A stretch of DNA of 64,000 nt from Sulfuricurvum sp. (GCA_030696285.1 JAUYSQ010000068.1:2231-66230), one strand, 5' to 3'; counted from the first letter of the stretch, positions 28,121 to 61,483 are shown. Notes: a model not told the origin generated them from the letters alone. Numbers and translations are program-made.

Positions 28121-28135
28121 TGCAAGGGGTGTTCT
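28121..28135 (-). promoter_or_regulatory. -24/-12-like nif motif AGAAC-N5-TTGCA upstream of nifH
   Basis: Minus strand tAGAACaccccTTGCAt, 35 nt before the ATG; recurs before other nif genes. Confidence 0.7.
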
Positions 28136-28360
28136 ATGGTTTTTTGGACATTTTTCAAAACAACCGTTACAAAGGTACGACAATGAAACAAAATTGTAGG
28201 AATAGGTATTGCAGGGGTAGACAACAATCAATTAGTAACATTTTAGGAGGCACATGGATCGTTACATGCCACTTGTATCCGTATATATAAGTAGATTAAT
28301 GATAAAATTACATAATTAATATTTATCAGTTAGAAATTTTTGCTAAAGGGAAAGTAAACG

Positions 28361-29923
28361 TTGCACTTCATTGAGTATATCTATTTTTTCTACGGCCTTG
28401 CATTTTTTCTCTTCGGCTTCAGTATCCTCCACTATCCAATGGAAAACTCTATTTTCAAATTTGCCCGTGAATTAAAATACCTGGGACTCTTTGGGATTCT
28501 CCACGGAATATCCGAATGGCTGGTCCTGTTCAAGTTGCTGGAAACGGGAGAGGCAAAGGAGTTGCTTAACATAGCCGATTTTAGTCTAATGAGCCTCTCC
28601 TATATCGTACTCCTCTATTTTGCTTTGCGCGTTATTTGGGATCGGTATCTTGCGATGAAACTCATCAGCCTTATTATTATAGGATCGTTGATAGTGATGA
28701 TTACCTTTAATCTTTTCTCATTTAACAATGCAACCATTCTAACTCGCTACTTCCTCGGCGCTCCTGGAATTTTCTTAACCGCTTATATATTTGCCCATCC
28801 ATTTTACGTCGTTCAAGGATTAGTTTATGACTCCGTAAAACGATGTACTTTTACCCTATCCATCATTTTTTTCATTTACGGCATCCTCGCAGGGCTCATT
28901 GTCCCCACCGGAGCTTTTTTCCCGGCATCCGTTCTCAATGCCGATACCTTTCAATCTCTGACCGGACTGCCGGTTCAGCTCTTTCGAGCTTTATGTGCAA
29001 TCGTAGCGAGCTATGCAATTAGTAAAATCCTTCAAGTGTTCAAGCATCAAACCGATTTCCATCTTTTTAAACTTTCCAAGGCTCTGGAAGAGAGCGGAGA
29101 TACCGTGGTGATCACCGATATAGAAGGGAAAATCGAGTATGTCAACCGCGCATTTGAGGAAGAATCAGGATTTTTGGCGGAGGAAGCACTCAATAAAAAA
29201 ACCAATATTCTCCGCTCCGGAGAACATAGAAATTCCTTTTATGAGAAGCTGTGGCAAACAATCCTAGGAGGAAAAACCTATCGCGGAGTAGTTACCAATA
29301 AGCGAAAAGATGCAACTCTCTATCACGAGTTCAAAACCATCGTTCCCCTAAAAAATAAACGAGGAGAGATCACCAATTTTATCTCAACCGGTAAAGACAT
29401 TACCTCGCGAGTCCTCTTTGAACACGAGCTGGAAAAAGCTGCAGCGACTGATCCTCTGACCGGTGCGGCGAACCGCTTGCAGTGTGACCGGTGGCTCAAA
29501 TCAGCAACCGACCAGGCCCGAGTATTTAATACGCCGATTACACTGATACTCTTTGATATCGATGACTTCAAAAAAGTCAACGATACCTTCGGACATAACG
29601 CAGGGGATAATGTCCTGATACAGATTTCCGAAATCGTCCGTACCCTGATGCGAAGCAGCGATATGTTTGCCCGGTGGGGTGGTGAAGAGTTTTTAATTTT
29701 GCAAACTGACACCCCCTTTGAGGGGACAATGGCCCTCGCGGAGCGACTCAGAAAAGAGATCGAACAATCAACCTTTAAAGATGTCGGTCAAATCACCATT
29801 AGCATCGGTGTAGCACAGTACGATGCAGTAGGAAGTATTGAGGCGTTTGTCAAAAAGGCGGATGATGCCATGTATGCAGCAAAAAAACAAGGAAAAAATA
29901 GGATTGTGGTTGACAAAAGATAA
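28361..29923 (+). CDS. Membrane sensor-PAS-GGDEF diguanylate cyclase
   Basis: About six N-terminal TM helices, PAS (EYVNRAFEEESGF), DIDDFKKVNDTFGH, RWGGEEF. Confidence 0.9.
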   Translation: MHFIEYIYFFYGLAFFLFGFSILHYPMENSIFKFARELKYLGLFGILHGISEWLVLFKLLETGEAKELLNIADFSLMSLSYIVLLYFALRVIWDRYLAMKLISLIIIGSLIVMITFNLFSFNNATILTRYFLGAPGIFLTAYIFAHPFYVVQGLVYDSVKRCTFTLSIIFFIYGILAGLIVPTGAFFPASVLNADTFQSLTGLPVQLFRALCAIVASYAISKILQVFKHQTDFHLFKLSKALEESGDTVVITDIEGKIEYVNRAFEEESGFLAEEALNKKTNILRSGEHRNSFYEKLWQTILGGKTYRGVVTNKRKDATLYHEFKTIVPLKNKRGEITNFISTGKDITSRVLFEHELEKAAATDPLTGAANRLQCDRWLKSATDQARVFNTPITLILFDIDDFKKVNDTFGHNAGDNVLIQISEIVRTLMRSSDMFARWGGEEFLILQTDTPFEGTMALAERLRKEIEQSTFKDVGQITISIGVAQYDAVGSIEAFVKKADDAMYAAKKQGKNRIVVDKR

Positions 29924-30154
29924 TAGCTTAATGACGCTATTCGATACATCAACCCCATGTTTCTCGTCTCGAATCCAAAGGTACGGTAAAATAGATACCG
30001 TTGTCTCTATAAATTCGCGTTGATGCTAAAATGTAATTGTGGCATGGTTGCGGATCAAAAAAATGTGATTTTTATCTATTTGATTAAAAAATAAGCTACT
30101 AAGGTGACTCGTTACTTTACCAATCCGTTACACTTCCTCTAAAAAGGGGCGGCT

Positions 30155-30712
30155 ATGACCAACAAAGAAAAATCAATCCATAATCTCCATCAAGCCAGAA
30201 CATCACATATCCGCTGGGTCAATGCAATTAAACTACTGATATCGGGTATCGATGTATCCTCCGATACAATTACTCTCTCTCCTACTGATTCACCCTTTGG
30301 AAAATGGTTTTATGGTGAAGCAATGATTTTTTCACTAGGAACCTCTCGAATGGCTCTCGAAGATATTGAAACACTGTTACTCTCATTGCATGATAAATAC
30401 ACCAAAATTTACCCTATCTATTATGGACAGAAAAAGAAAACACGTTTAGGAGGATTTTTAGGAGGTAAGAGTAAAGCAAGCGAGCATGAAATCGAACTCT
30501 CTCTACGCTATTATGAAGAGATCATTCTACTCTCCGATCAACTTAAACATAAGCTCCGTATTTTAGAAGCGCAATTTATGGGTTTCACAGAAGAAAAATT
30601 TGACGAATACTGCCGTTTTACTGAAAAAGAGACCATTGTACCGATCGAACTGAAGATACCCGAACCTTCCATAGATGAGGGAGCCTATCATTATGGAGCG
30701 CGGGGGAGATAA
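30155..30712 (+). CDS. CZB (chemoreceptor zinc-binding)-like domain protein
   Basis: HIRWV...SPFGKWFYGE...LHDKY pattern; some Zn ligands are missing. Confidence 0.65.
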   Translation: MTNKEKSIHNLHQARTSHIRWVNAIKLLISGIDVSSDTITLSPTDSPFGKWFYGEAMIFSLGTSRMALEDIETLLLSLHDKYTKIYPIYYGQKKKTRLGGFLGGKSKASEHEIELSLRYYEEIILLSDQLKHKLRILEAQFMGFTEEKFDEYCRFTEKETIVPIELKIPEPSIDEGAYHYGARGR

Positions 30713-31152
30713 TACATCAACCCCATATTATTCATCTCAAATTCAAACTTTTGATAGAAAGTAATTGCCGATATATTTCGTTTGTCGGCTCCCAATGCAA
30801 TACGTCCATAGCCAAGGATATGTGCATGTTCAATCATAGAACCAAGGAGTAAGCGACCAACTCCGATCCCTCGATACTCATGCGATACAATCATATCTTC
30901 GATCAATCCGACACGTTCCCCCATCGCAGTAGAGATAAGGCTTTGCATGGAGATCATCCCTATCACACGGTTAGAAATTTCGGCTACCACTATAATAGAA
31001 CCTTGATATTGAAGAAGCAATTGCAATCCACGGATCTGTTTATCCCTATCAATAATAAAATCATCTTCGATAGCGAAAAGTTCAGCAAGCAGACCTGCCA
31101 TAGCTGGAACATCATTGCTTTTGGCTTTACGGATAGTGACGTTAGCGTCCAC
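30691..31152 (-). CDS. GNAT-family N-acetyltransferase
   Basis: IEDMIVSHEYRGIGVGRLL acetyl-CoA motif; N..AITFYQKFEF. Confidence 0.9.
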   Translation of the reverse strand: MDANVTIRKAKSNDVPAMAGLLAELFAIEDDFIIDRDKQIRGLQLLLQYQGSIIVVAEISNRVIGMISMQSLISTAMGERVGLIEDMIVSHEYRGIGVGRLLLGSMIEHAHILGYGRIALGADKRNISAITFYQKFEFEMNNMGLMYYLPRAP

Positions 31153-31420
31153 TCTTCATCCTCTCAAGTATTTCTCCAAGTTTATCGTTGCGTAACTGAA
31201 TCAATCTGTCAATCTCTTCATAATCAAAATTTCCAGTATACGCCATATCAAAAATTCGTAAAAGTGCAGCGCGGCAACAGCTCTTGTCACACTCGGTAAC
31301 GAGCTTTTTAGCTTTTTTGTAGGGGAGGGAGGTCTCTTGGAAAATTTTGATGGCATCGGCAACACTCTTGCCACCGCATTCACAAATTTCGCAGGCTAAA
31401 ATTTCTTCTTTGGTAGGCAT
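31142..31420 (-). CDS. BFD-like [2Fe-2S]-binding protein
   Basis: ICECGG...ECDKSCC cysteine spacing, similar to BFD and the NifU central domain. Confidence 0.6.
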   Translation of the reverse strand: MPTKEEILACEICECGGKSVADAIKIFQETSLPYKKAKKLVTECDKSCCRAALLRIFDMAYTGNFDYEEIDRLIQLRNDKLGEILERMKSGR

Positions 31421-31475
31421 AAGAGCCTCCTTTAGTACGATAAATCAAAACTAAGATAGGTTTGTATTCTACCTT

Positions 31476-31545
31476 GTCATCCCGTGCTCCGACACGGGAT
31501 CCAAAACCACGAAATGCGTGGATACCGTATCAAGTACGGTATGAC
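31476..31545. repeat. REP-like doublet, family C
   Basis: gtcatcccgtgctccgacacgggatcca...tggataccgtatcaagtacggtatgac. Confidence 0.9.
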
Positions 31546-31582
31546 GGAGTATTCAAGCTTAATTCTGATTTAGTATGCTTCT

Positions 31583-31771
31583 TTACAGAGAATGCTCTGC
31601 TTTATACGCATTTGCTTTTTCGACAGCAACGTAGAGTTTTTCAGCCAATTCCGGCATCTTAACATGGTTGCTCCACACAGTATCTTCGACAATATCATGA
31701 ATCTCAGAGGCAACTTCTATCGCCAAGCGTTTGAGTTTTGCCAACTCTTTTTTGTGTTCTACTTCGGTCAT
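31583..31771 (-). CDS. Rop-like / CCE_0567-family nif-associated small protein
   Basis: KELAKLKRLA...SEIHDIVED matches the LKKL...LHDL.E pattern of this nif-cluster family. Confidence 0.7.
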   Translation of the reverse strand: MTEVEHKKELAKLKRLAIEVASEIHDIVEDTVWSNHVKMPELAEKLYVAVEKANAYKAEHSL

Positions 31772-31797
31772 AATAAACTCCTTATTTTTAGTTTAAA

Positions 31798-31812
31798 TGC
31801 AAATTTTGTTCA
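31798..31812 (-). promoter_or_regulatory. nif motif TGAAC-N5-TTGCA
   Basis: Minus strand TGAACaaaatTTGCA, 26 nt before the ATG at 31771. Confidence 0.65.
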
Positions 31813-32637
31813 CAGTGAAAATGCGTAAATATTATTAAATTTAACACTATGCACTTCTCCGTAAAACATGTGTAAAAACGTCCCTTTTTGTTGAAAGTGA
31901 TATTTTTCATACAGATCCACTGCTTTGGTATTTCCCATCGGAACATCGGCGAGCACTTTCTTCAATCCTCGAAAATACAGAACTCCCTGCATCATTTTTT
32001 CCGCTTCCTCGTCAAACCCCTCACGGCATTGCCACGGACCAAGATACACTCCGCGTGCATTGATAACACTGGAGTGTTGGAACGAGTTTGGGAGGGCGAA
32101 TTTCAGCGAACTGTTGCGCTCCATCTCATCGAGTATAAATCCCATACGATCTTCCCCGAATGTCTCAAAATCAAGCTTACGAATCATCGCATCGAAGTTT
32201 CCGCCATCGAGCTCTTTTGCCTGTGCATTGGTAAAACTAAACGGGGGAACTTTTCCGACATTAAGATATCGCCCTACTTCCATGACCGATTTAAAACCGC
32301 TTTGCTCAAAAAAATCTTCGAGTTGAGGATTGGCGTGCAAATAAAGAGAAGGGTGCTCCTCTTTTAAAACACCAAAAAGGGTATTAAATAGCCGCCGTCC
32401 GATCCCCTGCTTTTGATGCGTCGGTTTGACCATAAAATATTTAATCATCGCCGAGGATTCAAACTCGATTGCCATCACTGCACCGACAAGTACCCCTTCA
32501 TCGTAGGCACCGTAGCACAGATGCGGTGCGTGCATCATCATGAGTTTTACATGGTATCCATCGAGTAACCAACCGGTCTCTTCGGAAATTTTAATCAGAT
32601 CCGGAACATCGACAAACTTTAGCCACCCTATATACAT
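31810..32637 (-). CDS. GNAT-family acetyltransferase (double-GNAT length)
   Basis: FMVKPTHQKQGIGRRL; second domain N..AVDLYEKYHF; start overlaps the nifV stop. Confidence 0.8.
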   Translation of the reverse strand: MYIGWLKFVDVPDLIKISEETGWLLDGYHVKLMMMHAPHLCYGAYDEGVLVGAVMAIEFESSAMIKYFMVKPTHQKQGIGRRLFNTLFGVLKEEHPSLYLHANPQLEDFFEQSGFKSVMEVGRYLNVGKVPPFSFTNAQAKELDGGNFDAMIRKLDFETFGEDRMGFILDEMERNSSLKFALPNSFQHSSVINARGVYLGPWQCREGFDEEAEKMMQGVLYFRGLKKVLADVPMGNTKAVDLYEKYHFQQKGTFLHMFYGEVHSVKFNNIYAFSL

Positions 32638-33743: not shown

Positions 33744-33758
33744 AATAGGTTCCTTCCC

Positions 33759-33831
33759 GTCATCCTCGGGCTTGACCCGGGGATCCATCTTCATTAATGC
33801 ATAACTGGATTCCCGCCTTCGCGGGAATGAC
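33759..33831. repeat. REP-like doublet, family C, between nifB and nifV
   Basis: gtcatcctcgggcttgacccggggatcca...tggattcccgccttcgcgggaatgac. Confidence 0.9.
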
Positions 33832-33837
33832 GATGTA

Positions 33838-35326: not shown

Positions 35327-35341
35327 TGCAAATAGCGTTCT
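35327..35341 (-). promoter_or_regulatory. nif motif AGAAC-N5-TTGCA upstream of nifB
   Basis: Minus strand AGAACgctatTTGCAt. Confidence 0.7.
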
Positions 35342-35381: not shown

Positions 35382-35397
35382 TGTATTTAGGGGAACA
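35382..35397. promoter_or_regulatory. Possible NifA-type upstream activator site TGT-N10-ACA
   Basis: TGT atttagggga ACA lies between the two divergent nif motifs; a short motif like this can arise by chance. Confidence 0.4.
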
Positions 35398-35440: not shown

Positions 35441-35455
35441 AGAACAAGAGTTGCA
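35441..35455 (+). promoter_or_regulatory. nif motif AGAAC-N5-TTGCA upstream of the 35484 gene and ech operon
   Basis: AGAACaagagTTGCA, 28 nt before the ATG at 35484. Confidence 0.7.
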
Positions 35456-35483: not shown

Positions 35484-35927
35484 ATGATCGTTGCCATACC
35501 GATAGATGCATTCAAACGTGTCTACCACTACAATCCATGTAGCGCAACGATGTTCGCACTGTATGAGCTAAGCGGAGATCGCAAAGATATTCGCTATCGA
35601 CATTTGGAATCCAAACTCAATCCATGGAAAAAATGTGAAGGGGAGATGGTGTGTGATCCGAAGATGAAAGAGAGTAACTGTGACAGTGACAAAAGTCGCG
35701 ATCCTCATCACATCAGTGAACATTACGCACTGCTAGAAGTCATTGGTAAATGCGACTATCTTATCACGGGTCAATATTGTCTCAATACTTTTTATGCGAT
35801 GCGCAATGTCGGAATCAAAATCCATAAAATTCCTCCCTTTATGAAAACGACACACGAAGCGATGAACCACTTTATCATCGGTGCCGAGATCACCGACAAC
35901 CTCCAATACATCCACCCGGCATCGTAA
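35484..35927 (+). CDS. NifB/NifX-fold (FeMo-cofactor-binding-like) protein with a Cys-rich insert
   Basis: MIVAIP...ATMFALYEL...IGKCDYLITGQY..NTFYAMRNVGIKI matches the NifX-fold layout. Confidence 0.55.
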   Translation: MIVAIPIDAFKRVYHYNPCSATMFALYELSGDRKDIRYRHLESKLNPWKKCEGEMVCDPKMKESNCDSDKSRDPHHISEHYALLEVIGKCDYLITGQYCLNTFYAMRNVGIKIHKIPPFMKTTHEAMNHFIIGAEITDNLQYIHPAS

Positions 35928-41088: not shown

Positions 41089-41103
41089 AGAACGCTAAAT
41101 GCA
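41089..41103 (+). promoter_or_regulatory. nif motif variant AGAAC-N5-ATGCA
   Basis: AGAACgctaaATGCA, 34 nt before the TTG start at 41138. Confidence 0.55.
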
Positions 41104-45554: not shown

Positions 45555-46436
45555 ATGAGTCTATCGCAAAATGACGTTTTGTTTATAAATGAAGATAATG
45601 TATGCAGCAAGCTTTTCCAGTCAGCCATTGATACGCAAAATAATTTAATTGTTTTACTGCACCGTAATGTCCCTATTCTTTTCAATAAAGCTTTCCAAAA
45701 TTTCACTAACCTTCCCACCGTCAAAGAGTTTCTCCGTGAATTCGGCTCGCTTTCGAACCGTTTTGTTCCCCATGATGCCTATTTTCATGCTGGAAAAGCT
45801 GAAAATCCGAACGAGTGGACAACTGCACTTGAGGCTCTGCCCGAGTCAGACCGAATCGTTAGTATGATTAATTTCCGTGCCGAACCGTATGCCTTCTCTG
45901 TTACTATCGACACACCTGTAGAGGAGTATACCATTGTCTCATTTACCGATATCTCTCAAGATCTTATCAAGAGGATCATGATCGAAAATGATGTGAGTAT
46001 TGACAAAGAGAGCGGTGCTTACAATCAAGATTATTTTATTCATACGGCAAAAAGCTTTCAAAATGCGGCAGAATTCAATGAAAAAGCGATCGGAATTACA
46101 GTGATCGAACTGATGTCCTCTGATGTTGATGCGGATAAATACCTACGTGACTTTACCTCAAGTATCAAATGTAACATCCGCCAAAGCGATATGCTCGTTC
46201 GCTGGGGGAAAAAGATTTTTTTATTGGCGTATCTCATTGATACCCCAGATAATGCCATGAAATTCAGCCGAAAACTCATGACCGTTATGAAAGAAGAGCC
46301 TTTTGAGAGTCTAAATACGATCAGTATGCGTCTAGGATCAACCGTTCAAAACCATAAAGAAACTATCACGACTATCATTACGCGTGCAGAAACCGCTCTG
46401 AAACAATCCGACAGCTCGCAGATAACCCTGCTCTAG
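45555..46436 (+). CDS. PAS-like plus degenerate GGDEF domain protein
   Basis: GAYNQDYF, IRQSDMLVRWGKKIFLL, in which GGDEF is replaced by GKKIF. Confidence 0.6.
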   Translation: MSLSQNDVLFINEDNVCSKLFQSAIDTQNNLIVLLHRNVPILFNKAFQNFTNLPTVKEFLREFGSLSNRFVPHDAYFHAGKAENPNEWTTALEALPESDRIVSMINFRAEPYAFSVTIDTPVEEYTIVSFTDISQDLIKRIMIENDVSIDKESGAYNQDYFIHTAKSFQNAAEFNEKAIGITVIELMSSDVDADKYLRDFTSSIKCNIRQSDMLVRWGKKIFLLAYLIDTPDNAMKFSRKLMTVMKEEPFESLNTISMRLGSTVQNHKETITTIITRAETALKQSDSSQITLL

Positions 46437-49655: not shown

Positions 49656-50266
49656 TCTACCAACACGATTCCCATTGATTCCAGTAAAAACAATGCTTCA
49701 TAGCGGTTGAAAACAGCTCCTTTGAGATGGTTGGAGCGTACATCAATCATCGTGTTACTTGTGTCGGTAAAGTTGGCACCTTCGAGATGCGTATTGCCGA
49801 ACAACGCCCCCTTAAAATCGCTCCCGCTAAAATCGGCTTTTAGAAGTGTCGCGTTGCGAAAATCAACCTCTTTGGCTCGGCACTCTTTCATTACCATTCC
49901 CTCTATATTCAGACCAAAAAAATTGCTGTCATTGAGGATACACTCGCGAAAACGGATCGGATCGGCATTGAGTAAACTCTTCCAATCCCCCATCGTCCAA
50001 TCGATCCCGATCATCTTGCACGAGACAAACTCGACATCGCTCATTTTCGTATTGGTCAGTTTCATCAGGCTAAGATTGCAGTTTTCAAAACGGCATTCGG
50101 TAAATTTGCAGGAGGAGAAAAAAGTTTCGCTGAAATTGCAGGAGACGAAGGTGCAGTCATCGAACTCCGCTTTGGTGATCTTTTTGCCGTGCAGATCAAC
50201 GTTTTCGAATTTTTCGGCGAATACGTCCATGGTGTCGGTGATGCTCTTTTGAATACTCATCCGCAT
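49652..50266 (-). CDS. Pentapeptide repeat protein
   Basis: Periodic (A/C)xFxx repeats (CTFVS CNFSE TFFSS CKFTE CRFEN CNLSL). Confidence 0.88.
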   Translation of the reverse strand: MRMSIQKSITDTMDVFAEKFENVDLHGKKITKAEFDDCTFVSCNFSETFFSSCKFTECRFENCNLSLMKLTNTKMSDVEFVSCKMIGIDWTMGDWKSLLNADPIRFRECILNDSNFFGLNIEGMVMKECRAKEVDFRNATLLKADFSGSDFKGALFGNTHLEGANFTDTSNTMIDVRSNHLKGAVFNRYEALFLLESMGIVLVD

Positions 50267-50333
50267 ATTTTTACAATCTCTTCCATAAACCCAGTTGTTT
50301 TTTATTTATTGTGATAAGATAAATTTTGTACTT

Positions 50334-53300
50334 TTAATGTACATTCTCGGCAACTGGTCCATCATAAGTAAATCCTACATAAAAATTTATTATCTTACTT
50401 TCATCTCTTCCAATTTCAAACCCATATTTCGCCGGATTGAAGTATATCGACATTCCATTGATGTCAATAAAACCACGCTCAGGTGTCAATATTTTTTGTA
50501 TTCTACCGCTCAGTAAAGTAAGGTTCTGACGCATATTTTGAAGCTCTTTTTCTTCATCATCATCTCGAATTTTTGAATAATGAACTAACCTATTCACTCC
50601 TCCATTTTTTCCATACCATTCATATTTAAATCTACGATCTCGTCTAAATCGTGTTCTATTTTCTAGTTCACCTAGATTTAAGCGAACACTCTCAAGACTC
50701 CCAAGTGCGCCTTCCATTAAATTTACAGCGTGATATGCGTACAAATAATATATTGCATCGATAAAGTCTGTATTTACTTTCATATGTGCAATTTTTTCAA
50801 TTATACTATCCAAAGAAAATTGCGTGATGCCACTTTCACGTACTGCCCTAATCCACATCTTAATACTTTGTGTATCTCGAACATCCGAATTAACATTTTC
50901 TGTAAGTAATAAAACAATTCGTGATAAGACTTTCTGATCCAATCGCTCCCAATTACGATTATTTCGTTCTAATAATGTATGTGCAATATTACGTCGTATT
51001 ACATTTTTATTAATATTTGCTGATGGTGAATTTAACATACTATCAAATTCTTGCAATGCAATTTCAAAATTGCCATATAATCGATGCACTTGATTTCGAA
51101 GAACATAAAATTTTTCACTACGGCTATCTGCCCCATAAACTAATTCTAATTCATCAATAAGTGAACTTGCTTTATCAAAGGCATTTTCAAGAAAATTATC
51201 TTGTTTGATTCTTATATATTCAACTGTTGATTGTCCAGTAGCTCTATGAATTTTATCAAATAACTTAACATAAAGTGAAATTTCGCCTACATACGAATGT
51301 TCATCATTAGGCATATACAATCTAGCATTTTCAAATGCATCTACTGCACTCCCAGCAAGCGAAATAATCTCTTTTATACTATCCTCATTAGGTTCAATTG
51401 ACAACATATGACTATAAAATATCATTCCGTAAATATGATGTAATACATGATCATCATTTTGTAAACTTAGTGCTTCTTTAAGTGCCTCTTTTGCTCTTGG
51501 AAAATCTTTATTTAAACTCAGCATTCTTCCATAATGGGCTAGAAAATGTGGATTATTTGGATATTTTTCTGAAAGATGCTCAAGTACAATAAGCTTCCCC
51601 TCATTTACAGAAATATCTTCTAATATCTTACTAAACTTCTCATTCGACAAAGCATTTCTATCACGGTTTATGAATATTTTTGTCATTAGTTCAATCATTT
51701 TATTCGACTGTATCGGTAAATCAGAATGACAAAGATCAATAAATTCTTTTCCAATTGTTGATAGTTGTTGTTTCCATTGAGCACCAAAGAGATTTTCAAA
51801 AATCTTTTTTGCAATGGCAAAATGAATAATATAAATCTCACCATTTTTAGTCTCTACTAAATCAAGAGCAACATTTGAATCTCCACTAAATAATTTTTGA
51901 AGATCAATATTTTTTATACCAAAGTGCTTTCTGAATATTTCAATTGGAAGAGATGTTTGTCCGTAGTATTGAGCAACAGCTAAGTATAAGAAAAAATATT
52001 TCTGCGATTCAGTTAAATATAAAAATCTACTGTTAATATAATTATCTATTCCTTTATATTCGTCATCATATGCAACCAGACCAAAAAAGAATGCTGATTT
52101 TATATCATTTGATAGAACATATTTTTCTAAATCGCTTTTTTTATTTGTTAACGCTTCCGATTGATATGCAGACTTAAATGAAGCAATCTCCGGTATTGAA
52201 AGTTCTTCATAAAGATAAAAGTTAGATTTAGTACTACTCTTGTCATGTTTTACAATATCAAATTTACGAATAACTTGTAAAATAACCGAAGGATACCCTT
52301 CGGCTCTTAACTTTTCATATAAATCATCAATCTGAGTATCAGTAAATGACTCTCTATCGACAATTAATAATATACTTTTCTTTGATAAATTATATATTTG
52401 TCCAATTTTTCGATATGTACTATCTGAATTATAATTTGTTAAAAAACAAATTGGGTATTCATCTTTAAGCTCCCATGCGACTCTATGTGAAACTGTCGTG
52501 CCTCCAGCTCCTGGTTCATGATAGAGATTAGTACGGCTAACTTGCTTTTGATTCAAATACTGTTTTAGCTTATCTTGTAATTGTCTTGCAATATCTCTAT
52601 TACAATCATGATGCTGAACAATATTGTTCCACGTTATTTTATGCCCTTTTCGGTATTGAATAGCATTTTCAGCTTCTTCCTCAACAAACAGTTCTCTGTA
52701 AACAACAAATAAATCTTCAGCAAACCAATTTGCATTTTTCACAGAAATTTCGGTGTGTGTATCACCTTTTGGTATAAAATATCTTTTTGATTGGATGAAA
52801 TATTTATCAGAAAAAAGGCTATTAAGCCCATTTGAAATGGACTCGTCATCTATTACTATAATTTTACATATATCTTCATAATCTTCTGGAATATGAATGT
52901 TGCTATTTCCAATGATAACTATATGTGCACTTTGGTCAAGTAACCCGTGTAGTGATTCGACTATGTTATTAATAAATTTTTGATCATTAAATCCATAAAC
53001 AATAAAAATTCCATCTTTAGGATTTAAATCTTCTGCTATATAATTTAATTGTTCTTGAAACTGCTTATCGTGTAAGCGTTTCCATTCTTTATAAGATAAA
53101 TCTGAAGATGAAATATCTACGTCAGATTGACCATTGGCAAAAAACCAAGGTAGCGCTGGCATAGACAGTAATTTCATCGGTCTTACAAAATTATGAATAA
53201 CTCGATTTTGTTCAAACACTTCTTTAGTCTGTGCATATAAACCGTTTTGCTCGCTATCACGATTAAAATCAATTACCATATGCCAAGAGACATATCCAAG

Positions 53301-53534
53301 ATTTTTTAAGTTTATTGTTTTAGGATGATTGGTACCAGATATCAGGTAGTATTTTGCTCTTTTATAATTAAAATTATACGATGCATTTTTTAAGTTATTC
53401 CAATTGCTATTTTCTTCTAAATCTGAATTTGATTCCTCGCTTGCAGCATTACCATATACATTAGTTGTTATTATGGTTAAATTATTATGATTGCCAAGTT
53501 GTTCGGTTGTATTATTAGAGTTAATATCTGACAT
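50334..53534 (-). CDS. SAMD9/Avs9-like STAND NTPase (SIR2-like - P-loop - TPR - OB fold) with an N-terminal Asn-rich RHIM-like motif
   Basis: NLYHEPGAGGTTVSHRVAWEL (SAMD9-type Walker A as I recall it: NLYHxPGCGGTTL), ILLIVD Walker B, WHMVIDFN and PWFFANG in the SIR2-like region, TPR-like helices, terminal FYVGFTYDGPVA. AT-rich. Confidence 0.8.
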   Translation of the reverse strand: MSDINSNNTTEQLGNHNNLTIITTNVYGNAASEESNSDLEENSNWNNLKNASYNFNYKRAKYYLISGTNHPKTINLKNLGYVSWHMVIDFNRDSEQNGLYAQTKEVFEQNRVIHNFVRPMKLLSMPALPWFFANGQSDVDISSSDLSYKEWKRLHDKQFQEQLNYIAEDLNPKDGIFIVYGFNDQKFINNIVESLHGLLDQSAHIVIIGNSNIHIPEDYEDICKIIVIDDESISNGLNSLFSDKYFIQSKRYFIPKGDTHTEISVKNANWFAEDLFVVYRELFVEEEAENAIQYRKGHKITWNNIVQHHDCNRDIARQLQDKLKQYLNQKQVSRTNLYHEPGAGGTTVSHRVAWELKDEYPICFLTNYNSDSTYRKIGQIYNLSKKSILLIVDRESFTDTQIDDLYEKLRAEGYPSVILQVIRKFDIVKHDKSSTKSNFYLYEELSIPEIASFKSAYQSEALTNKKSDLEKYVLSNDIKSAFFFGLVAYDDEYKGIDNYINSRFLYLTESQKYFFLYLAVAQYYGQTSLPIEIFRKHFGIKNIDLQKLFSGDSNVALDLVETKNGEIYIIHFAIAKKIFENLFGAQWKQQLSTIGKEFIDLCHSDLPIQSNKMIELMTKIFINRDRNALSNEKFSKILEDISVNEGKLIVLEHLSEKYPNNPHFLAHYGRMLSLNKDFPRAKEALKEALSLQNDDHVLHHIYGMIFYSHMLSIEPNEDSIKEIISLAGSAVDAFENARLYMPNDEHSYVGEISLYVKLFDKIHRATGQSTVEYIRIKQDNFLENAFDKASSLIDELELVYGADSRSEKFYVLRNQVHRLYGNFEIALQEFDSMLNSPSANINKNVIRRNIAHTLLERNNRNWERLDQKVLSRIVLLLTENVNSDVRDTQSIKMWIRAVRESGITQFSLDSIIEKIAHMKVNTDFIDAIYYLYAYHAVNLMEGALGSLESVRLNLGELENRTRFRRDRRFKYEWYGKNGGVNRLVHYSKIRDDDEEKELQNMRQNLTLLSGRIQKILTPERGFIDINGMSIYFNPAKYGFEIGRDESKIINFYVGFTYDGPVAENVH

Positions 53535-53537
53535 TTC

Positions 53538-53810
53538 TTATCCAATTTTCACACGATTATTATCACCATTTTGGACAACAGTATTACCTGAATTGATATT
53601 AATTTCACCATTCTGTTTTAATTCTTCAAGCTGTTTTTGTATTTCTTTATTTACAGAAAATATCGTTTGAAGATGAGAAGAAAAATCATCTTTTTTATCT
53701 GCATTCACCAAATCTTTCAAAATTCCAAACGATCCACCAAAAATGAGTTTTACACTATCATAAAAAGCATTCCCAGCTACTGCATCCCAAGCAAAATCAA
53801 CTAAATCCAT
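53538..53810 (-). CDS. Small putative effector: helical N-terminal domain plus C-terminal RHIM-like motif
   Basis: RBS AAAGGA; ends 3 nt before the STAND gene start; C-terminus NINSGNTVVQNGDNNRVKIG. Confidence 0.75.
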   Translation of the reverse strand: MDLVDFAWDAVAGNAFYDSVKLIFGGSFGILKDLVNADKKDDFSSHLQTIFSVNKEIQKQLEELKQNGEININSGNTVVQNGDNNRVKIG

Positions 53811-53883
53811 TTATTTTCCTTTTAATCATTTAAAAAATTAATACTGAACAAGTATACAATATTTTTCCACTCTCCTCAACGCC

Positions 53884-54288
53884 TCATTCTCTACATTTTG
53901 CTTTGAGTGCCGATCCAAACTGTTCCATCATTGGATAATACGTGTGAGTTATCAATTCTTCGAGTTCATCCAAAATAGTTTCGTCATAAATTTCTAAGGC
54001 GAGGTTACGCTTTTCGAGTGCTTCAAGCCATTTGGCACCATCGGAGATCAGCCCGTAATCAAAGGCAGTTTTGATCGCTTCGCGAGGGCTTTTGACATCA
54101 TACCCCTCGGTGATGAGATAATCTTTCATCACTTTCCACGCCAACTCAAACGCCACCTCAAAAAACTGGATAAGACCCGCTTTTTCGATCTCGTTGAGAT
54201 TCTCTTTTTCGACCGTGGCACGCACGTGTGCAAGCGATTTGGTGTAATTGACCATCCGTTGTCGGCATCGAACCAATCCCTCACCCAT
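53884..54288 (-). CDS. HI0074-like nucleotidyltransferase substrate-binding (HEPN) protein; RxxxxH motif altered
   Basis: GLIQFFEVAFELAWK.MKDYL, SPREAIK.AF..GLI, RNLALEIY. Confidence 0.8.
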   Translation of the reverse strand: MGEGLVRCRQRMVNYTKSLAHVRATVEKENLNEIEKAGLIQFFEVAFELAWKVMKDYLITEGYDVKSPREAIKTAFDYGLISDGAKWLEALEKRNLALEIYDETILDELEELITHTYYPMMEQFGSALKAKCRE

Positions 54289-56200: not shown

Positions 56201-56212
56201 GTGTCCCCCTCT

Positions 56213-58408
56213 TTAAACATCGTATTCTGCCCCCAAGTCCGAACGTGTCGAGCGCAGTCGTTCAGCCAATACCGTCGCGAGACTTTGCATAAAATGAAAC
56301 GACGCTTTTTTATGGTGTACGGAAAACTGATCGAATGCTTCTCGTGAGATCATATAGAGATCCGTATCAGTACCCGCAATAGCATCCGTATAATGGGGAG
56401 CCCCTTCCAAAAATGAAAACTCGCCGAAAAAATTATTCTGCCCCAACGTACTGAGATGGACACTCTTTCTTCCGGCAAAGGGGAGCATAATACGAACCGA
56501 ACCTCGACGTATCAAAAATATTTCCCCACTCGAATCCCCTTCGGAATAGATTGTCTCCCCTTTTTTTACAGATCGACTCTCTACTAAGCTTTGAATCTCC
56601 TCTAATGTATCCTCATTACGCCCTTTGAAAAGATCAAAATCCTGAAGGTTGAGAAGTTCTTCCCCTTTTTCTTCGATAAGCCCCTCTTTGATAATCTTAT
56701 TCTCAGCCCATTCAATCGCATCATCCAGATCATCGAAAACTTTGATCGGACTAAGATGTTTGAGTAATCCGACACGATTGAAATAACTCTCCAAGTCATC
56801 TCCGCTGGGAAGTTTATGAGGTAATCGGCATAAAAGTAAATATCCATCTCTGTCTTGGAGAATATCTTTGATTTGCAACAGGATATGCGCCGCTGTCAAA
56901 TCAACGTTCTGAACGCGCTTCATATCCATAATGATGTATTTTTTCTGCTGCAAATCTTCTTGCAACATCGTATAAAGCTGATTTGCTGTGCCGAAAAAGA
57001 GACTTCCATGCAACTCATAGACGGAAAAATTGCTCCCATTTTCACGTAAAAGGTTTACTTCATCTTTGTTTCGAACAATTTTACTTCGTGCATCCATTCC
57101 ATCAAGATGACGATACACCACTGAAGTACCGATTTGTTGAGCGATATACAGTGCAATTGCCAAGATTAAACCTACCCCAGCAGCGGCAATAAGGCTTACA
57201 GAAATTGCCGTCAATGCAACGGCGACAATAATCAAAAAATCAAGACCCGTTTTACGGAATTCGAGTAGTTTAATACTCCGTTTATCGATCATCCGAAAGC
57301 CAATAACCATCAAAATTCCGCCCAGTGCCGCAACAGGAATCCATGCAATAAATGCCCCCAGAACCAGAAAAGCGACAATAGCCATTACCCCTTCTATAAA
57401 ACCTGAAATACGCGTCGAACCACCGCTGGAGATATTGACCATCGTCGCACCCATTGTCCCAGATCCAGGCATCCCTCCGAATAATGAAGAGACAATATTA
57501 CCTGAGCCTTGGGCTATCAGCTCTTTATTTGGGTTATGAAAAGAGTGGGTCATCGAATCCAAAATAACACAGGTTTTGAGCGTATCGATCGAGAGGAGTG
57601 CCGCCAACGTCAATGCGGGGAAAATGAGGGTAGCAAGATTTTCCCATGAAAGTTTTAAGAGCCCCTCAAAACGTCCCGTAAATATCTGAATGAAATCAAT
57701 CCCTCCACTTCCTCCAAGCTCACCGATGACATAAGGATTATTTGCATATAAAAGAGAGGGATCGATGAGGGCTAGCAGAAAATACGTTCCAATACCCATT
57801 GCCAATGCCATAATAACAGCAGGAATAACCCGAAATATTTTTTCGGCATAGAGCATAATAAGGATTGTTGTCAACCCAACGATAATACTCTGCCATTGCC
57901 ATGCGCTCGAGAGCTGGAGTGACTCAAAAAAACGGGTGCCCTGTGGAAGACCCAAAAATATCGGCGTTTGTGATGCAATAATATAGAGTCCTACACCACT
58001 TAAATATCCGCTGACGACCGGAAAAGGCATATATTTAATGAGCCGCCCCAATCCAATAACACCAAAAGATATCTGAAATAGACCCGCCAAGAGGGCAACA
58101 ACCATCAAAAGGATAAAGACGATATCAGCATTGATCCCTCTCGACATATATTCGAGTGCAAATGCCGACAAAACTGCAGCAGCGGGAGCGCTTGGGGCAG
58201 AAATCAGTTTATTTGTCCCCCCCATGAGAGCAGTGACAATTCCGATCGCTGCAACCCCTAAAATACCGGCTATTGCACCATACGCACCATAATGACCGCC
58301 AACCGTCGCATAGATCGTTACCCCAAATGCAATTGCGGCAGGAAGAGCCACCAGCATTGCCGCCGTTCCACCCCAAAAATCACCTGGCAAATTTGCCGTT
58401 TTAACCAT
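56213..58408 (-). CDS. SulP-family anion transporter with STAS and cNMP-binding domains
   Basis: GDFWGG...ALPAAIAFG, NKELIAQG.GN, GSLFFG (STAS), FFGEFSFL (cNMP). Confidence 0.92.
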   Translation of the reverse strand: MVKTANLPGDFWGGTAAMLVALPAAIAFGVTIYATVGGHYGAYGAIAGILGVAAIGIVTALMGGTNKLISAPSAPAAAVLSAFALEYMSRGINADIVFILLMVVALLAGLFQISFGVIGLGRLIKYMPFPVVSGYLSGVGLYIIASQTPIFLGLPQGTRFFESLQLSSAWQWQSIIVGLTTILIMLYAEKIFRVIPAVIMALAMGIGTYFLLALIDPSLLYANNPYVIGELGGSGGIDFIQIFTGRFEGLLKLSWENLATLIFPALTLAALLSIDTLKTCVILDSMTHSFHNPNKELIAQGSGNIVSSLFGGMPGSGTMGATMVNISSGGSTRISGFIEGVMAIVAFLVLGAFIAWIPVAALGGILMVIGFRMIDKRSIKLLEFRKTGLDFLIIVAVALTAISVSLIAAAGVGLILAIALYIAQQIGTSVVYRHLDGMDARSKIVRNKDEVNLLRENGSNFSVYELHGSLFFGTANQLYTMLQEDLQQKKYIIMDMKRVQNVDLTAAHILLQIKDILQDRDGYLLLCRLPHKLPSGDDLESYFNRVGLLKHLSPIKVFDDLDDAIEWAENKIIKEGLIEEKGEELLNLQDFDLFKGRNEDTLEEIQSLVESRSVKKGETIYSEGDSSGEIFLIRRGSVRIMLPFAGRKSVHLSTLGQNNFFGEFSFLEGAPHYTDAIAGTDTDLYMISREAFDQFSVHHKKASFHFMQSLATVLAERLRSTRSDLGAEYDV

Positions 58409-58549
58409 ATAAAATCCCTACTTTACATCATCCTAAGATTAAACCGTATTATTAATATTTCATTGTACCGAAAATAGGGTTGAGGTTATACGTAAAATGT
58501 CAATTAAAATTTAAGATTTGAAACAAAAGAGGGATCAGGAGAGAGGGCT

Positions 58550-58885
58550 CTAACTTTCGATCAGCAACGACCCTCGCACCGAAGCTTTAAAAAGTTTCAT
58601 TTTCTCTTGAGTAATAATTGCCATTGCCCTTTCTCTCTCTTTTTTAATCTGAGCGAAAAGAGCTGCCGTGGGGAAGTTGCGAGCAGTATGAATCAGAGAG
58701 TAGACACTCTCATCAAAGAGGTCACTTTTAAAAGGTTCGAGTGCATCGTAGAGAGCCATAAAAACAGCTCGTCCATCCTCACCCATTTTACACGAATCAT
58801 CGCTGATTTTCAAAGCGACCGTCACCGCACAATCTTTGGCAAAAATGTCGAGACTAGTCGCAACTTTGGCAATAGGACTCATCAA
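58550..58885 (-). CDS. Hypothetical protein (last gene of the nif-linked ferredoxin operon)
   Basis: 111-aa ORF overlapping the upstream ferredoxin stop by ATGA. Confidence 0.65.
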   Translation of the reverse strand: MMSPIAKVATSLDIFAKDCAVTVALKISDDSCKMGEDGRAVFMALYDALEPFKSDLFDESVYSLIHTARNFPTAALFAQIKKERERAMAIITQEKMKLFKASVRGSLLIES

Positions 58886-59277
58886 CCCACTTCTTGCAAA
58901 TCTTCGGGTTCTTCTTGAACAATTTTACCGATACCGCGATCCTCATTCGGGATGTCTTTTCGGTATTTTTTCTCTCTAAAGGCAGGAGATTTCGGAATAC
59001 CGTTTTTCTCTCCCAGTTTATACATTTCACCATTAAGAAAATGAGCGTCAAACTCTTTGGTATAAGGCATGTCCCACGTAATACATCCGATACTCGGACA
59101 AATCGCCGCACATTGTGGATCATCATACACACCAACGCATTCGATGCACTTCTCAGGTTGCACATAATAACGCTTGTTCCCCATTGGACTTTCGGTATCA
59201 TCTACGATTGCGTTGACCGGACATTGTTGTAAACACGCATCGCACGTGATACAAGTATCATCAATAATAACAGACAT
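58882..59277 (-). CDS. 2x[4Fe-4S] ferredoxin with C-terminal extension
   Basis: CITCDACLQQCP and CIECVG.....QCAAICP; start MSVIIDD at 59277 after AAGGAG. Confidence 0.9.
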   Translation of the reverse strand: MSVIIDDTCITCDACLQQCPVNAIVDDTESPMGNKRYYVQPEKCIECVGVYDDPQCAAICPSIGCITWDMPYTKEFDAHFLNGEMYKLGEKNGIPKSPAFREKKYRKDIPNEDRGIGKIVQEEPEDLQEVG

Positions 59278-59296
59278 TTCATATCTCCTTAAGAAA

Positions 59297-59370
59297 TTCT
59301 GCCCTGCAAGGGCAAGCTTTAGTGCCTTAGCGGCAAGCGTAGCTATCTGGATGCATTCAGATAGCGTTCT
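59297..59370. repeat. Two-hairpin repeat, family B, copy 2
   Basis: Core shared with 7854-7928; overlaps the stop of the NifX-like gene. Confidence 0.9.
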
Positions 59371-59737
59371 CCTTAGATGTGTGGACAATGCGCAGTAACC
59401 ACGGCGGCGGATTGCCCAATAATAACTCTTGAAGTTTTTTGATTGCTTCATTAATGAGTTCATTCTCAGCCGAACGCATCGGATAAATCTTGGAAGCCAA
59501 CACCATCTTCGACGCCGTCGGACCGATTTGGGAGCAAAACATAATGTCTGCTTCTTTTACCGTCCCGATTTTGTACGCCAGTTTTTCGTGTTCGTCTTCG
59601 ATCGCGTCTTGGGAGCTGTCGAGTGTTTTGATAAACTGGGCACTTTGTTCCGTGACACGATACAGCTCAAAACTCTTCGACCACCCAAAATGTTGATTGA
59701 CAGAAATTCCATCCGATGAAGCGAACGCGATTAACAT
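59357..59737 (-). CDS. NifX/NifY-family FeMo-cofactor carrier-like protein
   Basis: IAFASSDG..VNQHFG.S..F..Y, DIMFCSQIGPTA..MV....IYP. Confidence 0.85.
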   Translation of the reverse strand: MLIAFASSDGISVNQHFGWSKSFELYRVTEQSAQFIKTLDSSQDAIEDEHEKLAYKIGTVKEADIMFCSQIGPTASKMVLASKIYPMRSAENELINEAIKKLQELLLGNPPPWLLRIVHTSKENAI

Positions 59738-60112
59738 TTAGACGGCTACCGCTTCACGTGCTTGACGCATTTGGGTCGAAATGTCATCACGAAAAGTTTG
59801 CGGAGAAACTTCCGGAGAAAGCAACCCGCGTTTTTTGCTCGAACTGATAGCATAATCCGAACTGTTCACATAATAATCATTAAACTCAGCCGTGTAAGGC
59901 ATATCCCAAACAATACACTCTTCCGTAGGACACGCTGCCGCACATGCAGGTACTTCGGCATGACCGACACACTCGATACATTTTTCAGGTTTAACGTAGG
60001 TAAATTCCCAATCATCACGCGGTGAATCACCCTCGCTTACAATTGCCGCTACCGGACACTCATCGATACACGCGTCACAGTTAATACATAAATCAGTAAT
60101 CATTACTGCCAT
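59738..60112 (-). CDS. 2x[4Fe-4S] ferredoxin (FdxN-like) with C-terminal extension
   Basis: CINCDACIDECP and CIECVG.....ACAAACP; start MAVMITD at 60112. Confidence 0.9.
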   Translation of the reverse strand: MAVMITDLCINCDACIDECPVAAIVSEGDSPRDDWEFTYVKPEKCIECVGHAEVPACAAACPTEECIVWDMPYTAEFNDYYVNSSDYAISSSKKRGLLSPEVSPQTFRDDISTQMRQAREAVAV

Positions 60113-60136
60113 AATAGACTCCTTTAGATTATTTAA

Positions 60137-60179
60137 AACGCCATCGGAACACATCCCGATTGGCTATGCTAACGCTAAG
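60137..60179. repeat. Partial family B repeat, copy 3 (opposite orientation)
   Basis: Reverse complement tagccaatcgggatgtgttccgatggcgtt versus copy 1 tagccaaagggattttattcctttggcgtt. Confidence 0.6.
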
Positions 60180-60214
60180 TTCTCTTCGGTAGAGAGCCCG
60201 CGCACTTAGGTGCT

Positions 60215-60667
60215 TTATCCATTTTTCAATTGATATAATTTGTCTTTGCATTTTTCATACGAGGTGGAGTCTAATACGGGAAGCAATTTTATATCCACCG
60301 CTTTGAGCAGCAATGTCACTGCACACCCCTCACAAAGTTCCATCCGATCAAACGCATCTGTCGTGATAAGTGAATTCATAATGCCGCAGGGTGTTTCCAC
60401 GCTCACTTCACTCAGAACCAAACCCTTACGAAAATGTTGTAGTTCACCACTTAGATGGTTTTCAATCGAAACACTTCCCTCTTTTGACCCCGTACACAGT
60501 GATATTGCCGCCTCTTGGATACGGCACTCCACCTCATCACCGATACGGAGCCATTTGGGTGCTTCGGTTTTGAGAAGTTTTAATACCGTCTCTTTTGTAC
60601 GAACCGTGATACAGCTAAAAAATTCATCGCTTTTAATCTCTTCCACATAGGCTGGAAATGAGTTCAT
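60215..60667 (-). CDS. Tandem TOBE-domain (Mop/ModE-like molybdate-binding) protein
   Basis: SIENHLSGEL...GLVLSEV.V......MNSLITT.A...MEL.EG..VT.L.KA..I. Confidence 0.8.
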   Translation of the reverse strand: MNSFPAYVEEIKSDEFFSCITVRTKETVLKLLKTEAPKWLRIGDEVECRIQEAAISLCTGSKEGSVSIENHLSGELQHFRKGLVLSEVSVETPCGIMNSLITTDAFDRMELCEGCAVTLLLKAVDIKLLPVLDSTSYEKCKDKLYQLKNG

Positions 60668-60679
60668 AATAGACTCCTA

Positions 60680-61408
60680 TTACCAAAGATAGATGACGAT
60701 TCTTTTATCAATAACGTTTTCAAACTGTTCCAATATCATCCCCGCTGTCGAAGTAGGTCCCAGATGACATCCCGAACACGCACCCAAATATCGGAGCCAG
60801 ATTTCAGGAGTATCACCGCTTATGTAGTTAACCAATTCCACTCCGCCGCCGTCGCTTGCGAGGATGGGTCCGAGATTGTCACTAATCACCAACTCGACTT
60901 TCTCTCTCTGGATTGCTTCATCCAACACTCGAAATGCGACATTTATGTCGTTATCTTCACTCTTGTTACTGACATAGGTCAAAAGTGAATGCGCCTGAGA
61001 TTCTCCCGCATGCGCCGCTTTTATCATCCATTTCATCGAGCTTAACACGTCATCATTTCGAAGCAAGATTCCCAGTTTGAGCTGTGCGGTTACCATATTG
61101 GCATTGGCTGCCACGGTATAATGGCGAATCGACTCTTCCATATTTGCCGTGACCCCGATCCCGTTTTCATACATCCCGCCCAGATAAAATGCCGCCGTTT
61201 CATGTCCTAAGGATGCCGCACGTTCAAACAGCTCGTACGCTTTATGAATGTTTTTAGGCATACCGAACCCTTTAACATACATAGTTCCTAGGTTGACCAT
61301 TGCATTACTGTTAGATTCACCAAGAGATTCCCAAATTGCTTTTGCACTCATGTAATCTTTCGCATCGTAGGCTTTTATCGCCTGCTGCATCAATGTCTCT
61401 TCTTCCAT
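60680..61408 (-). CDS. Sel1-like repeat protein fused to a C-terminal NifU-C/Nfu domain
   Basis: AMVNLGTMYVKGFG, AAFYLGGMYENGIG, AQLKLG repeats; LGPILASDGGGVELV...YLGACSGC. Confidence 0.85.
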   Translation of the reverse strand: MEEETLMQQAIKAYDAKDYMSAKAIWESLGESNSNAMVNLGTMYVKGFGMPKNIHKAYELFERAASLGHETAAFYLGGMYENGIGVTANMEESIRHYTVAANANMVTAQLKLGILLRNDDVLSSMKWMIKAAHAGESQAHSLLTYVSNKSEDNDINVAFRVLDEAIQREKVELVISDNLGPILASDGGGVELVNYISGDTPEIWLRYLGACSGCHLGPTSTAGMILEQFENVIDKRIVIYLW

Positions 61409-61445
61409 GGTCGCTCCCTATTTTTACTCTTATTAAGAAGGGCGT

Positions 61446-61460
61446 TGCAATTGCTGTTCA
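61446..61460 (-). promoter_or_regulatory. nif motif TGAAC-N5-TTGCA upstream of the Sel1-Nfu operon
   Basis: Minus strand TGAACagcaaTTGCA, 37 nt before the ATG at 61408. Confidence 0.65.
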
Positions 61461-61468
61461 CAATTAAG

Positions 61469-61483
61469 AGAATGAAAAATGCA
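61469..61483 (+). promoter_or_regulatory. Weaker divergent nif motif AGAAT-N5-ATGCA
   Basis: 33 nt before the ATG at 61517; two mismatches to the consensus. Confidence 0.35.

Follow-up and report, generated by a model that had tools for sequence, protein, structure and literature searches.

Putative -24/-12 promoters with a dispensable first G and a nif-linked sigma-54 paralogue in Sulfuricurvum

We analyzed a stretch of 64,000 nucleotides from Sulfuricurvum sp. (GCA_030696285.1, JAUYSQ010000068.1:2231-66230; hereafter the window), which is part of contig C123 of a 2.39-Mb assembly in 295 contigs and contains nitrogen fixation (nif) genes. Its proteins have close relatives in Sulfuricurvum MAGs (family Sulfurimonadaceae, order Campylobacterales). 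Short elements of the form NGAAY-N5-WTGCA, rarely with G as the first base, precede nif genes and several of their neighbors. Comparison of sequences across the genus and order makes it probable that these sites are the -24/-12 promoters of a nif regulon, most likely read by RpoN2, a sigma-54 encoded in a nif gene block, apart from the flagellar sigma-54 circuit. In the -24 element, GG is treated as a near-invariant signature of sigma-54 promoters. It is built into every sigma-54 promoter prediction tool, and the nif regulon described here would consequently be missed by such searches.

Putative promoter elements with a variable first base

A preliminary description of the window had proposed a seven-promoter nif regulon defined by the motif WGAAY-N5-WTGCA. 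Inspection of the window located all seven sites at the coordinates and on the strands given there. Each site is intergenic and co-oriented with the adjacent gene, whose start codon, preceded by a Shine-Dalgarno (SD) sequence, lies 26-73 nt downstream. The first position is indeed a non-G base in all seven, leaving the second G of the GG. WTGCA follows at N5 spacing in every case, placing the GC exactly ten bases after the GG position, which corresponds to sigma-54 geometry. The nif-type element carries an A at -11. The seven sites are given here with two others that were absent from the earlier list (28199 and 20888); ORF denotes open reading frame.

28121..28135, minus strand: nifH promoter, AGAAC-N5-TTGCA, 35 nt before the nifH ATG
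28199..28213, plus strand: divergent -24/-12 site, GGAAT-N5-TTGCA, in which the GG is canonical and -11 is A; 63 bp separate it from the nifH site
31798..31812, minus strand: promoter TGAAC-N5-TTGCA, heading, in this order, a 62-aa Rop-like gene (31583-31771), a 92-aa ORF and a GNAT gene
35327..35341, minus strand: nifB promoter, AGAAC-N5-TTGCA, operon of nifB, nifV and a GNAT gene
35441..35455, plus strand: ech promoter, AGAAC-N5-TTGCA, before a 147-aa ORF (35484-35927) and a six-gene Ech/Hyf-type hydrogenase operon (to 41009)
41089..41103, plus strand: prx promoter, AGAAC-N5-ATGCA, operon of Tpx-like (41138), SIR2-like, clpP, clpX and class-V aminotransferase (NifS-type) genes
61446..61460, minus strand: sel1-nfu promoter, TGAAC-N5-TTGCA, operon of Sel1-NifU-like, TOBE, ferredoxin, NifX-like (Nitro_FeMo-Co) and ferredoxin genes
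61469..61483, plus strand: promoter AGAAT-N5-ATGCA, back-to-back with the 61446 site, before a 73-aa ORF (61517-61738) and a 161-aa ORF
20888..20902, minus strand: eighth match to WGAAY-N5-WTGCA, AGAAC-N5-ATGCA, before a 73-aa ORF, a fatty-acid cis/trans isomerase gene and a gene for a phospholipase D-type enzyme

The window contains eight matches to WGAAY-N5-WTGCA, compared with 2.06 expected (the mean over 100 dinucleotide-preserving shuffles of the window), and none of the 100 shuffles reached eight. The motif is above background frequency. We considered whether an AT-rich pattern could have piled up in intergenic DNA by chance. Some matches in the whole genome are probably of this kind, and so is the one at 20888, for which we found no alignable orthologous counterpart in six relatives; we take it as a probable chance match because no relative's alignment spans the site and because the downstream genes are not nif genes. 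For the set as a whole, chance is scarcely credible. Besides the shuffling result, the conservation of sites over 28-30 genomes in which flanks and spacers vary contradicts it, and the genes behind the sites form a functionally coherent set.

We scanned the whole assembly for NGAAY-N5-WTGC, discarded matches inside long ORFs and required an SD-preceded start downstream; 32 sites in such a promoter context remained. Two classes of site can be distinguished. Class F, TGGAAY-N5-TTGCTT, is found before flgB, flgE, flgF/G, flgH, flgI and flgK, with about six further sites preceding small or unassigned ORFs; every flagellar-type site in this genome has the GG. Class N is (A/T, rarely C or G)GAAY-N5-WTGCA. 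Outside the window, on contigs named here by C numbers, its members precede the following genes.

C275:7341: nifU
C151:15965: gene for molybdate-binding ModA
C38 and C205: two near-identical Tpx-like genes, both with AGAAC-N5-TTGCA
C265:2315: flavodiiron protein gene, with CGAAC
C275:7391: PII-like gene, with GGAAT
C270:6157: rpoN2, with TAGAAC-N5-ATGCA about 40 nt before the ATG

Sorted by the first base and the base at -11, the sites in promoter context number 8 for G with T, 11 for non-G with A, 2 for G with A and 4 for non-G with T. Matches located in promoter context make up 26% of the G...T combination, 16% of the non-G...A combination and 3-7% of the others. The preliminary description had noted that spacing and -12 element agree with sigma-54 promoters, and the enrichment in promoter context is particular to N5: 10/54 class N matches at N5 lie in promoter context versus 16/312 at spacings N2-N8 excluding N5, and for class F the values are 8/31 versus 4/134 at other spacings. 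The count of 7/59 in promoter context at N2 spacing is a point in favor of chance. Taken from these sequences, the nif regulon would comprise about 15 promoters, including those of modA, nifU, the peroxiredoxin-like genes, the Ech hydrogenase and rpoN2.

We compared the sites with their counterparts in relatives (genomes named by G numbers). The nifH site, TAGAAC-N5-WTGCA, is invariant in 30/30 Sulfuricurvum genomes, in which the flanking bases vary. The GGAAT and WTGCA of the divergent 28199 site are likewise invariant in 29/29 genomes of the genus around a variable N5 spacer, and at least 10 of 30 loci retain its PAS-GGDEF neighbor. Every relative with a spanning alignment has preserved the nifB, ech, prx, sel1-nfu and 61469 sites: nifB in G002, G070 and G056 despite diverged flanks, ech in G002 and G070, prx in G067, sel1-nfu in G070 and, with TGAAC changed to AGAAC, in G056, and 61469 in G070 and G056. 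G070 keeps the 31798 site, G056 has TGAAT there and G063 has lost it.

A comparison of two orthologous promoters, each in 28 genomes, separates the classes. At modA, GAAY and TTGCA are unchanged; as the first base, 6 genomes have A, 11 have T, 10 have C and 1 has G. At flgI, TGG is present in 28/28 genomes and T at -11 in 28/28. With flgI invariant and modA free at equal phylogenetic depth, selection acts on the first G at flagellar promoters and not at the nif-class modA promoter. The GAAY-N5-WTGCA part of the motif as initially described is therefore upheld and its leading W is not; the better form is NGAAY-N5-WTGCA, because the first base varies freely at modA and because one conserved site, 28199, has a GG. 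Similarly, all seven proposed members remain in the regulon, the size of which had been underestimated, and the GG-bearing 28199 site joins them. The proposal that the motif draws additional genes into the regulon is borne out for the Ech hydrogenase, the Tpx-like/SIR2/clpPX/nifS genes, the Sel1-Nfu genes and the Rop-like gene.

A sigma-54 gene linked to nif

A search with the Sigma54_DBD model returned two full-length rpoN genes and one 34-residue fragment. RpoN1 (C164:7279-8550) is encoded after an lptB-type ABC ATPase gene, the usual housekeeping place of rpoN. RpoN2 (C270:6210-7472) is located in a nif block after nifN, a flavodoxin gene, a nifZ-like gene and a 2Fe-2S ferredoxin gene, these neighbors being named from their translations and not from a family search. 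The two proteins share only 42% identity, and in both the activator-interacting, core-binding and DNA-binding domains score above the Pfam cut-offs (for RpoN2, PF00309 27.3 bits, PF04963 108.8 and PF04552 155.6). RpoN2 aligns to Klebsiella pneumoniae sigma-54 structures with an E value of 1e-36. Compared with the RpoN box consensus ARRTVAKYR, RpoN1 has VRRTIAKYR and RpoN2 has VRRLIAKYR, in which both arginines and the KYR are kept and Thr-457 is replaced by leucine; in RpoN2 orthologues, residue 457 is V, S or A. The preliminary description had suggested either a variant RpoN specificity or a paralogue, to be sought in the rpoN copy number and the RpoN box. There are two sigma-54 genes, with RRL in place of RRT in the RpoN2 box, and together with the nif-cluster location of RpoN2 and the GG still found at flagellar promoters the comparison lends support to both suggestions.

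A genuine sigma-54 interaction domain is found in only two proteins of the genome. One, a response regulator of the FlgR type, has receiver, AAA+ and lid domains and no helix-turn-helix domain; in Helicobacter and Campylobacter, FlgR without a DNA-binding domain can activate from solution. The other is a probable NifA, with AAA+ and HTH_8 domains, which scores 500.5 bits against the TIGR01817 cut-off of 528.85 and covers profile positions 87-530, its N terminus being cut by a contig end.

The 34-residue fragment (C40:138-230) is RpoN2-like, contains a TAG and sits at a contig start. The two Tpx-like copies of class N (C38:185-733 and C205:607-1155) are near-identical, share the same promoter and lie on short contigs. 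Both the duplicate genes and the fragment probably reflect strain heterogeneity in this metagenome-assembled genome (MAG) and not true paralogues.

Of 24 genomes sampled in the genus, 19 have an intact RpoN2 (87-95% identity) and three others have fragments of it; 18 of the 19 also hold an RpoN1 copy with 41-46% identity to RpoN2. In relatives, RpoN2 shares a contig with nifH. Contamination as the source of rpoN2 is ruled out by its intact presence in these 19 genomes and by its occurrence on the nifH contig in several genomes.

We extended the search for NifH and RpoN to 300 Campylobacterales genomes, which are relatives and not independent samples and in which numbers of matches are not exact copy numbers. 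Families are given by f numbers.

f1, f8 and f23: at least two RpoN matches in 30/31 nifH-positive genomes, the exception having the RpoN2 type only, and in 0/28 nifH-negative genomes
f10: RpoN in 10 genomes only, which are the 10 nifH-positive ones, and in none of the nifH-negative genomes
f6: RpoN in 6 genomes only, which are the 6 nifH-positive ones, and in none of the nifH-negative genomes

In f10 and f6, rpoN is mostly found within a few kb of nifH, and at 42 kb in G192. In a maximum-likelihood tree all nif-linked RpoNs form one clade (SH-aLRT, the Shimodaira-Hasegawa-like approximate likelihood ratio test, 99), apart from an lptB-linked clade that includes RpoN1. Among 11 basal nif-linked sequences, seven have RRT, three have S and one has N at the third position. 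All basal genomes in which the nifH promoter was read have the GG there, mostly as TGGAAC-N5-WTGCA, with -12 variants in G221 and G187. A derived branch with RR-S/L/V/A has AGAAY at nifH and comprises Sulfuricurvum, other Sulfurimonadaceae, MAGs labeled Sulfurovum and family f19. Around rpoN2 itself (62 loci), the first base of the sites in promoter context is A in 35, G in 5 and C in 2 cases where the box is RRL or RRV, all sites ending in TGCA except one C site with TGCC; where the box is RRS, it is A in 15, G in 7 and C in 3, and all sites end in TGCA.

Within the aligned C-terminal DNA-binding region (residues 337-475, K. pneumoniae numbering), seven positions separate the derived branch from all other RpoNs: 342, 347, 348, 387, 443 (L to H), 457 (T to S/V/L/A) and 470 (S to F/Y). 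Thr-457 and Asn-471 are reported to hydrogen-bond the -24 DNA, and an AC457/458 double Ala/Cys mutant has lost DNA binding and activity (PMC2715252). A second study describes re-targeting of the second G of the GG by a change of the neighboring Arg-456 (PMC12096077). These findings make an altered reading of the -24 element by RpoN2 plausible.

Proposed sigma-54 discrimination and alternative readings

The sequences favor the following mechanism. Under nitrogen limitation, NifA would remodel RpoN2-holoenzyme closed complexes at NGAAY-N5-WTGCA promoters, and rpoN2 would be amplified from its own promoter in a positive feedback. The first G would be dispensable for RpoN2 through changes at or beside the -24 contacts (T457 to L/V/S/A, S470 to F/Y and L443 to H), and RpoN1, still requiring the GG, would stay off the nif promoters. 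Loss of the G and an A in place of T at -11 would together keep the nif genes beyond the reach of RpoN1 and of the enhancer-independent FlgR. A private sigma factor with its own promoter dialect would stop flagellar signaling from firing the nif genes. We propose tentatively that RpoN2 may be naturally orthogonal: once its need for the first G had been removed, the promoters could have drifted beyond the housekeeping/flagellar sigma-54, and the nif cluster of Campylobacterales would move and function as a self-contained module, insulated from FlgR, with its own sigma, activator and dialect.

It is possible instead, if unlikely, that these are sigma-54 promoters readable by either sigma. Loss of the G would then only weaken the closed complex and tighten dependence on NifA, and RpoN2 would be an extra supply of sigma-54 carried by the nif island, having traveled with it. 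Such promiscuity is in line with a first base that is free and not specifically A, with the conserved GG site in the same region, with RRS-type RpoN2 alongside GG nifH promoters in G286, G287 and G192, and with families that have no flagellar RpoN, in which the nif-linked copy is the sole sigma-54. It does not readily explain why the GG is never lost at flagellar promoters (28/28 at flgI, and all flagellar-type sites here), a pattern from which RpoN1-type sigmas appear to need it. Moreover, loss of the G is confined to the clade with RpoN changes at or beside DNA-contact residues, and the existence of classes that differ at both -26 and -11 is hard to explain without discrimination.

A reading in which the motif is not a sigma-54 element at all, being the site of another nif regulator or the -35 box ("GAAC") of a sigma factor of the extracytoplasmic function (ECF) type, is very improbable. 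The GG is incomplete and GAAC resembles ECF -35 boxes; in addition, a conserved AAATGTC(G/C)-N11 stands before three of the sites, so that other factors act there. The distance from GAAY to TTGC is nevertheless fixed at N5, with an enrichment specific to that spacing, and the element is asymmetric, always oriented with the gene and placed 26-73 nt from the start codon. Sister lineages have TGGAAC-N5-WTGCA nifH promoters at the same position, and a sigma-54 gene and NifA occur in the same gene clusters. No conserved -10-like box is found 16-17 nt downstream, and for this reason, together with the fixed N5 to TTGCA, we reject an ECF-type -35/-10 promoter.

Several observations weigh against a dedicated reading of these promoters by RpoN2. 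The link between the Thr-457 change and loss of the G traces to essentially one evolutionary transition. G286, G287 and G192 combine RRS with a GG at nifH, which also rules out a strict rule that any residue other than Thr at 457 goes with AG. A conserved GG site, 28199, lies beside nifH itself. Lineages that have only an RpoN1-type sigma also show an A at -11 in their nifH promoters; for this reason the A may be a mark of NifA-type promoters and not of sigma choice. The NifA upstream activating sequence (UAS), TGT-N10-ACA, is found at one promoter pair only, a match that chance could give: a scan of 200 nt upstream of 11 sites returned only the site shared by nifB and ech, approximately the number expected by chance. 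NifA is cut at a contig end and scores just under its curated cut-off, and the genome is a 295-contig MAG with 4.3% contamination.

We compared RpoN2 and its candidate promoters to systems in which sigma-54 paralogues or variants have been described. In Cereibacter (Rhodobacter) sphaeroides, RpoN1 acts with NifA on nif genes and RpoN2 with FleQ on flagellar genes (Poggio et al. 2002, 2006, via PMC11999139). There, both promoter sets have a GG, and discrimination is by the -11 position and by activator specificity (PMC11999139). Sulfuricurvum resembles C. sphaeroides in having paralogues, one of them nif-linked, with distinct promoter sets, and in the A at -11 in nif and T in flagellar promoters. 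It differs in that the nif set is without the first G, the nif sigma has Thr-457 changed, the flagellar activator has no DNA-binding domain and the organism belongs to the Campylobacterota.

Rhodobacter capsulatus nifR4 and Bradyrhizobium rpoN1/2 are α-proteobacterial rpoN copies linked to nif or symbiosis genes. As far as is known, the nif- or symbiosis-linked sigmas of this group recognize the canonical TGGCAC-N5-TTGC and are largely interchangeable with the housekeeping copy, and we know of no altered -24 dialect described for them. Mesorhizobium loti rpoN2 is likewise a symbiosis-island copy (PMC3538637). Sulfuricurvum shares with these species a second rpoN linked to nif or symbiosis genes; the partnership with NifA is known there and presumed here. 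In engineered sigma-54, the substitutions R456H/Y/L and rewired -24 elements create a separate NifA-driven promoter set (PMC12096077), and here too an RpoN-box change is paired with a changed -24 sequence. Those are laboratory mutants with the second G altered, whereas Sulfuricurvum would provide a natural pair in which the arginines are kept, Thr-457 and residues 443 and 470 are changed and the first G is dispensable.

In this genome RpoN1, the flagellar-type promoters and FlgR, with its lack of a DNA-binding domain, all fit the RpoN-FlgR regulon of Campylobacter and Helicobacter (TGGAAC-N5-TTGCTT). The nif promoters stand outside that system by their non-G first base, the A at -11, another activator and a sigma-54 of another clade. 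Our search of a literature collection found no account of a nif-linked rpoN or of a G-less -24 element in Campylobacterota.

If RpoN2 reads these promoters as proposed, a natural sigma-54/promoter pair minus one G would show how sigma-54 specificity evolves; the authors of the engineering study ask why natural sigma-54 has not diversified at this contact (PMC12096077). Such a pair would also explain how an expensive, oxygen-sensitive pathway stays silent despite an enhancer-independent flagellar activator, and it would offer a ready-made orthogonal sigma-54/NifA module for nitrogen-fixation engineering. The Ech hydrogenase operon, the Tpx-like/SIR2/ClpXP operon, the Sel1-Nfu operon, the small ORFs and the PAS-GGDEF gene become candidate members of the nif regulon.

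Neighboring genes and additional elements

Further features of the window lie next to these promoters.

23602..28085, minus strand: operon of nifH, a 119-aa ORF, nifD and nifK, downstream of the 28121 promoter, with TIGR01287, TIGR01282 and TIGR01286 above cut-offs
26632-26991, minus strand: the 119-aa ORF between nifH and nifD, with no NCBIfam or Pfam match
28254-28319, plus strand: 21-codon ORF MDRYMPLVSVYISRLMIKLHN, which has a strong AGGAGG and follows the GGAAT-N5-TTGCA site at a distance of 27 nt
28361-29923, plus strand: PAS-GGDEF gene, faced by the GGAAT-N5-TTGCA site at 28199
35382..35397, no strand assigned: single perfect match to the NifA UAS consensus TGT-N10-ACA, halfway between the nifB and ech promoters, which are divergent

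In relatives, conservation near the 21-codon ORF ends at the -12 element. The 62-aa ORF at 31583-31771 matches PF05082 (Rop-like), a family that occurs in nif operons. The 147-aa ORF downstream of the ech promoter has no NCBIfam or Pfam match, which leaves its earlier NifX-like label without a family match, and no Pfam family was found for the 73-aa and 161-aa ORFs that follow the 61469 site.

At nifH (28136-28160), nifU (C275 ~7356-7375) and modA (C151 ~15945-15964), the AAATGTC(G/C) element precedes the -24 element by exactly 11 nt, and it is conserved throughout the genus at nifH and modA. The promoters of nifB, ech, prx and rpoN2 lack it. Another regulator may bind this element, or it may be an extended promoter contact.

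The modA promoter (C151 ~15923-15954) additionally contains, after CTATAAT, a palindrome CGTTATAT-N8-CATAACG that resembles the Escherichia coli ModE operator, and a second CGTTATATC is found downstream of the -12 element. The palindrome, the CTATAAT and the downstream CGTTATATC are conserved in 28 genomes. This arrangement suggests molybdate repression layered over a nif-type promoter. A repeated intergenic element (…CGCCTTCGCGGGAATGACGA…) is located upstream of both rpoN2 (C270 5960-6110) and modA (C151 15805-15890). The CGCCTTCGCGGGAATGACGA stretch has many matches in several genomes of the genus, for example at four places in G048, and the repeat looks like a repetitive extragenic palindromic (REP) element or a miniature inverted-repeat transposable element (MITE).

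A low-GC stretch of the window (50000-54000, 0.30-0.33 versus ~0.44 elsewhere) contains a 1066-aa ORF with a "novel STAND NTPase 5" domain and may be a foreign, defense-type island. Three GGDEF genes lie in or flank the nif region, at 20901-23003 (minus strand), 28361-29923 (plus strand) and 45555-46436 (plus strand), two of them also with PAS domains. Their position near nif, with one facing the conserved GG-type site, hints at a link between cyclic di-GMP and diazotrophy.

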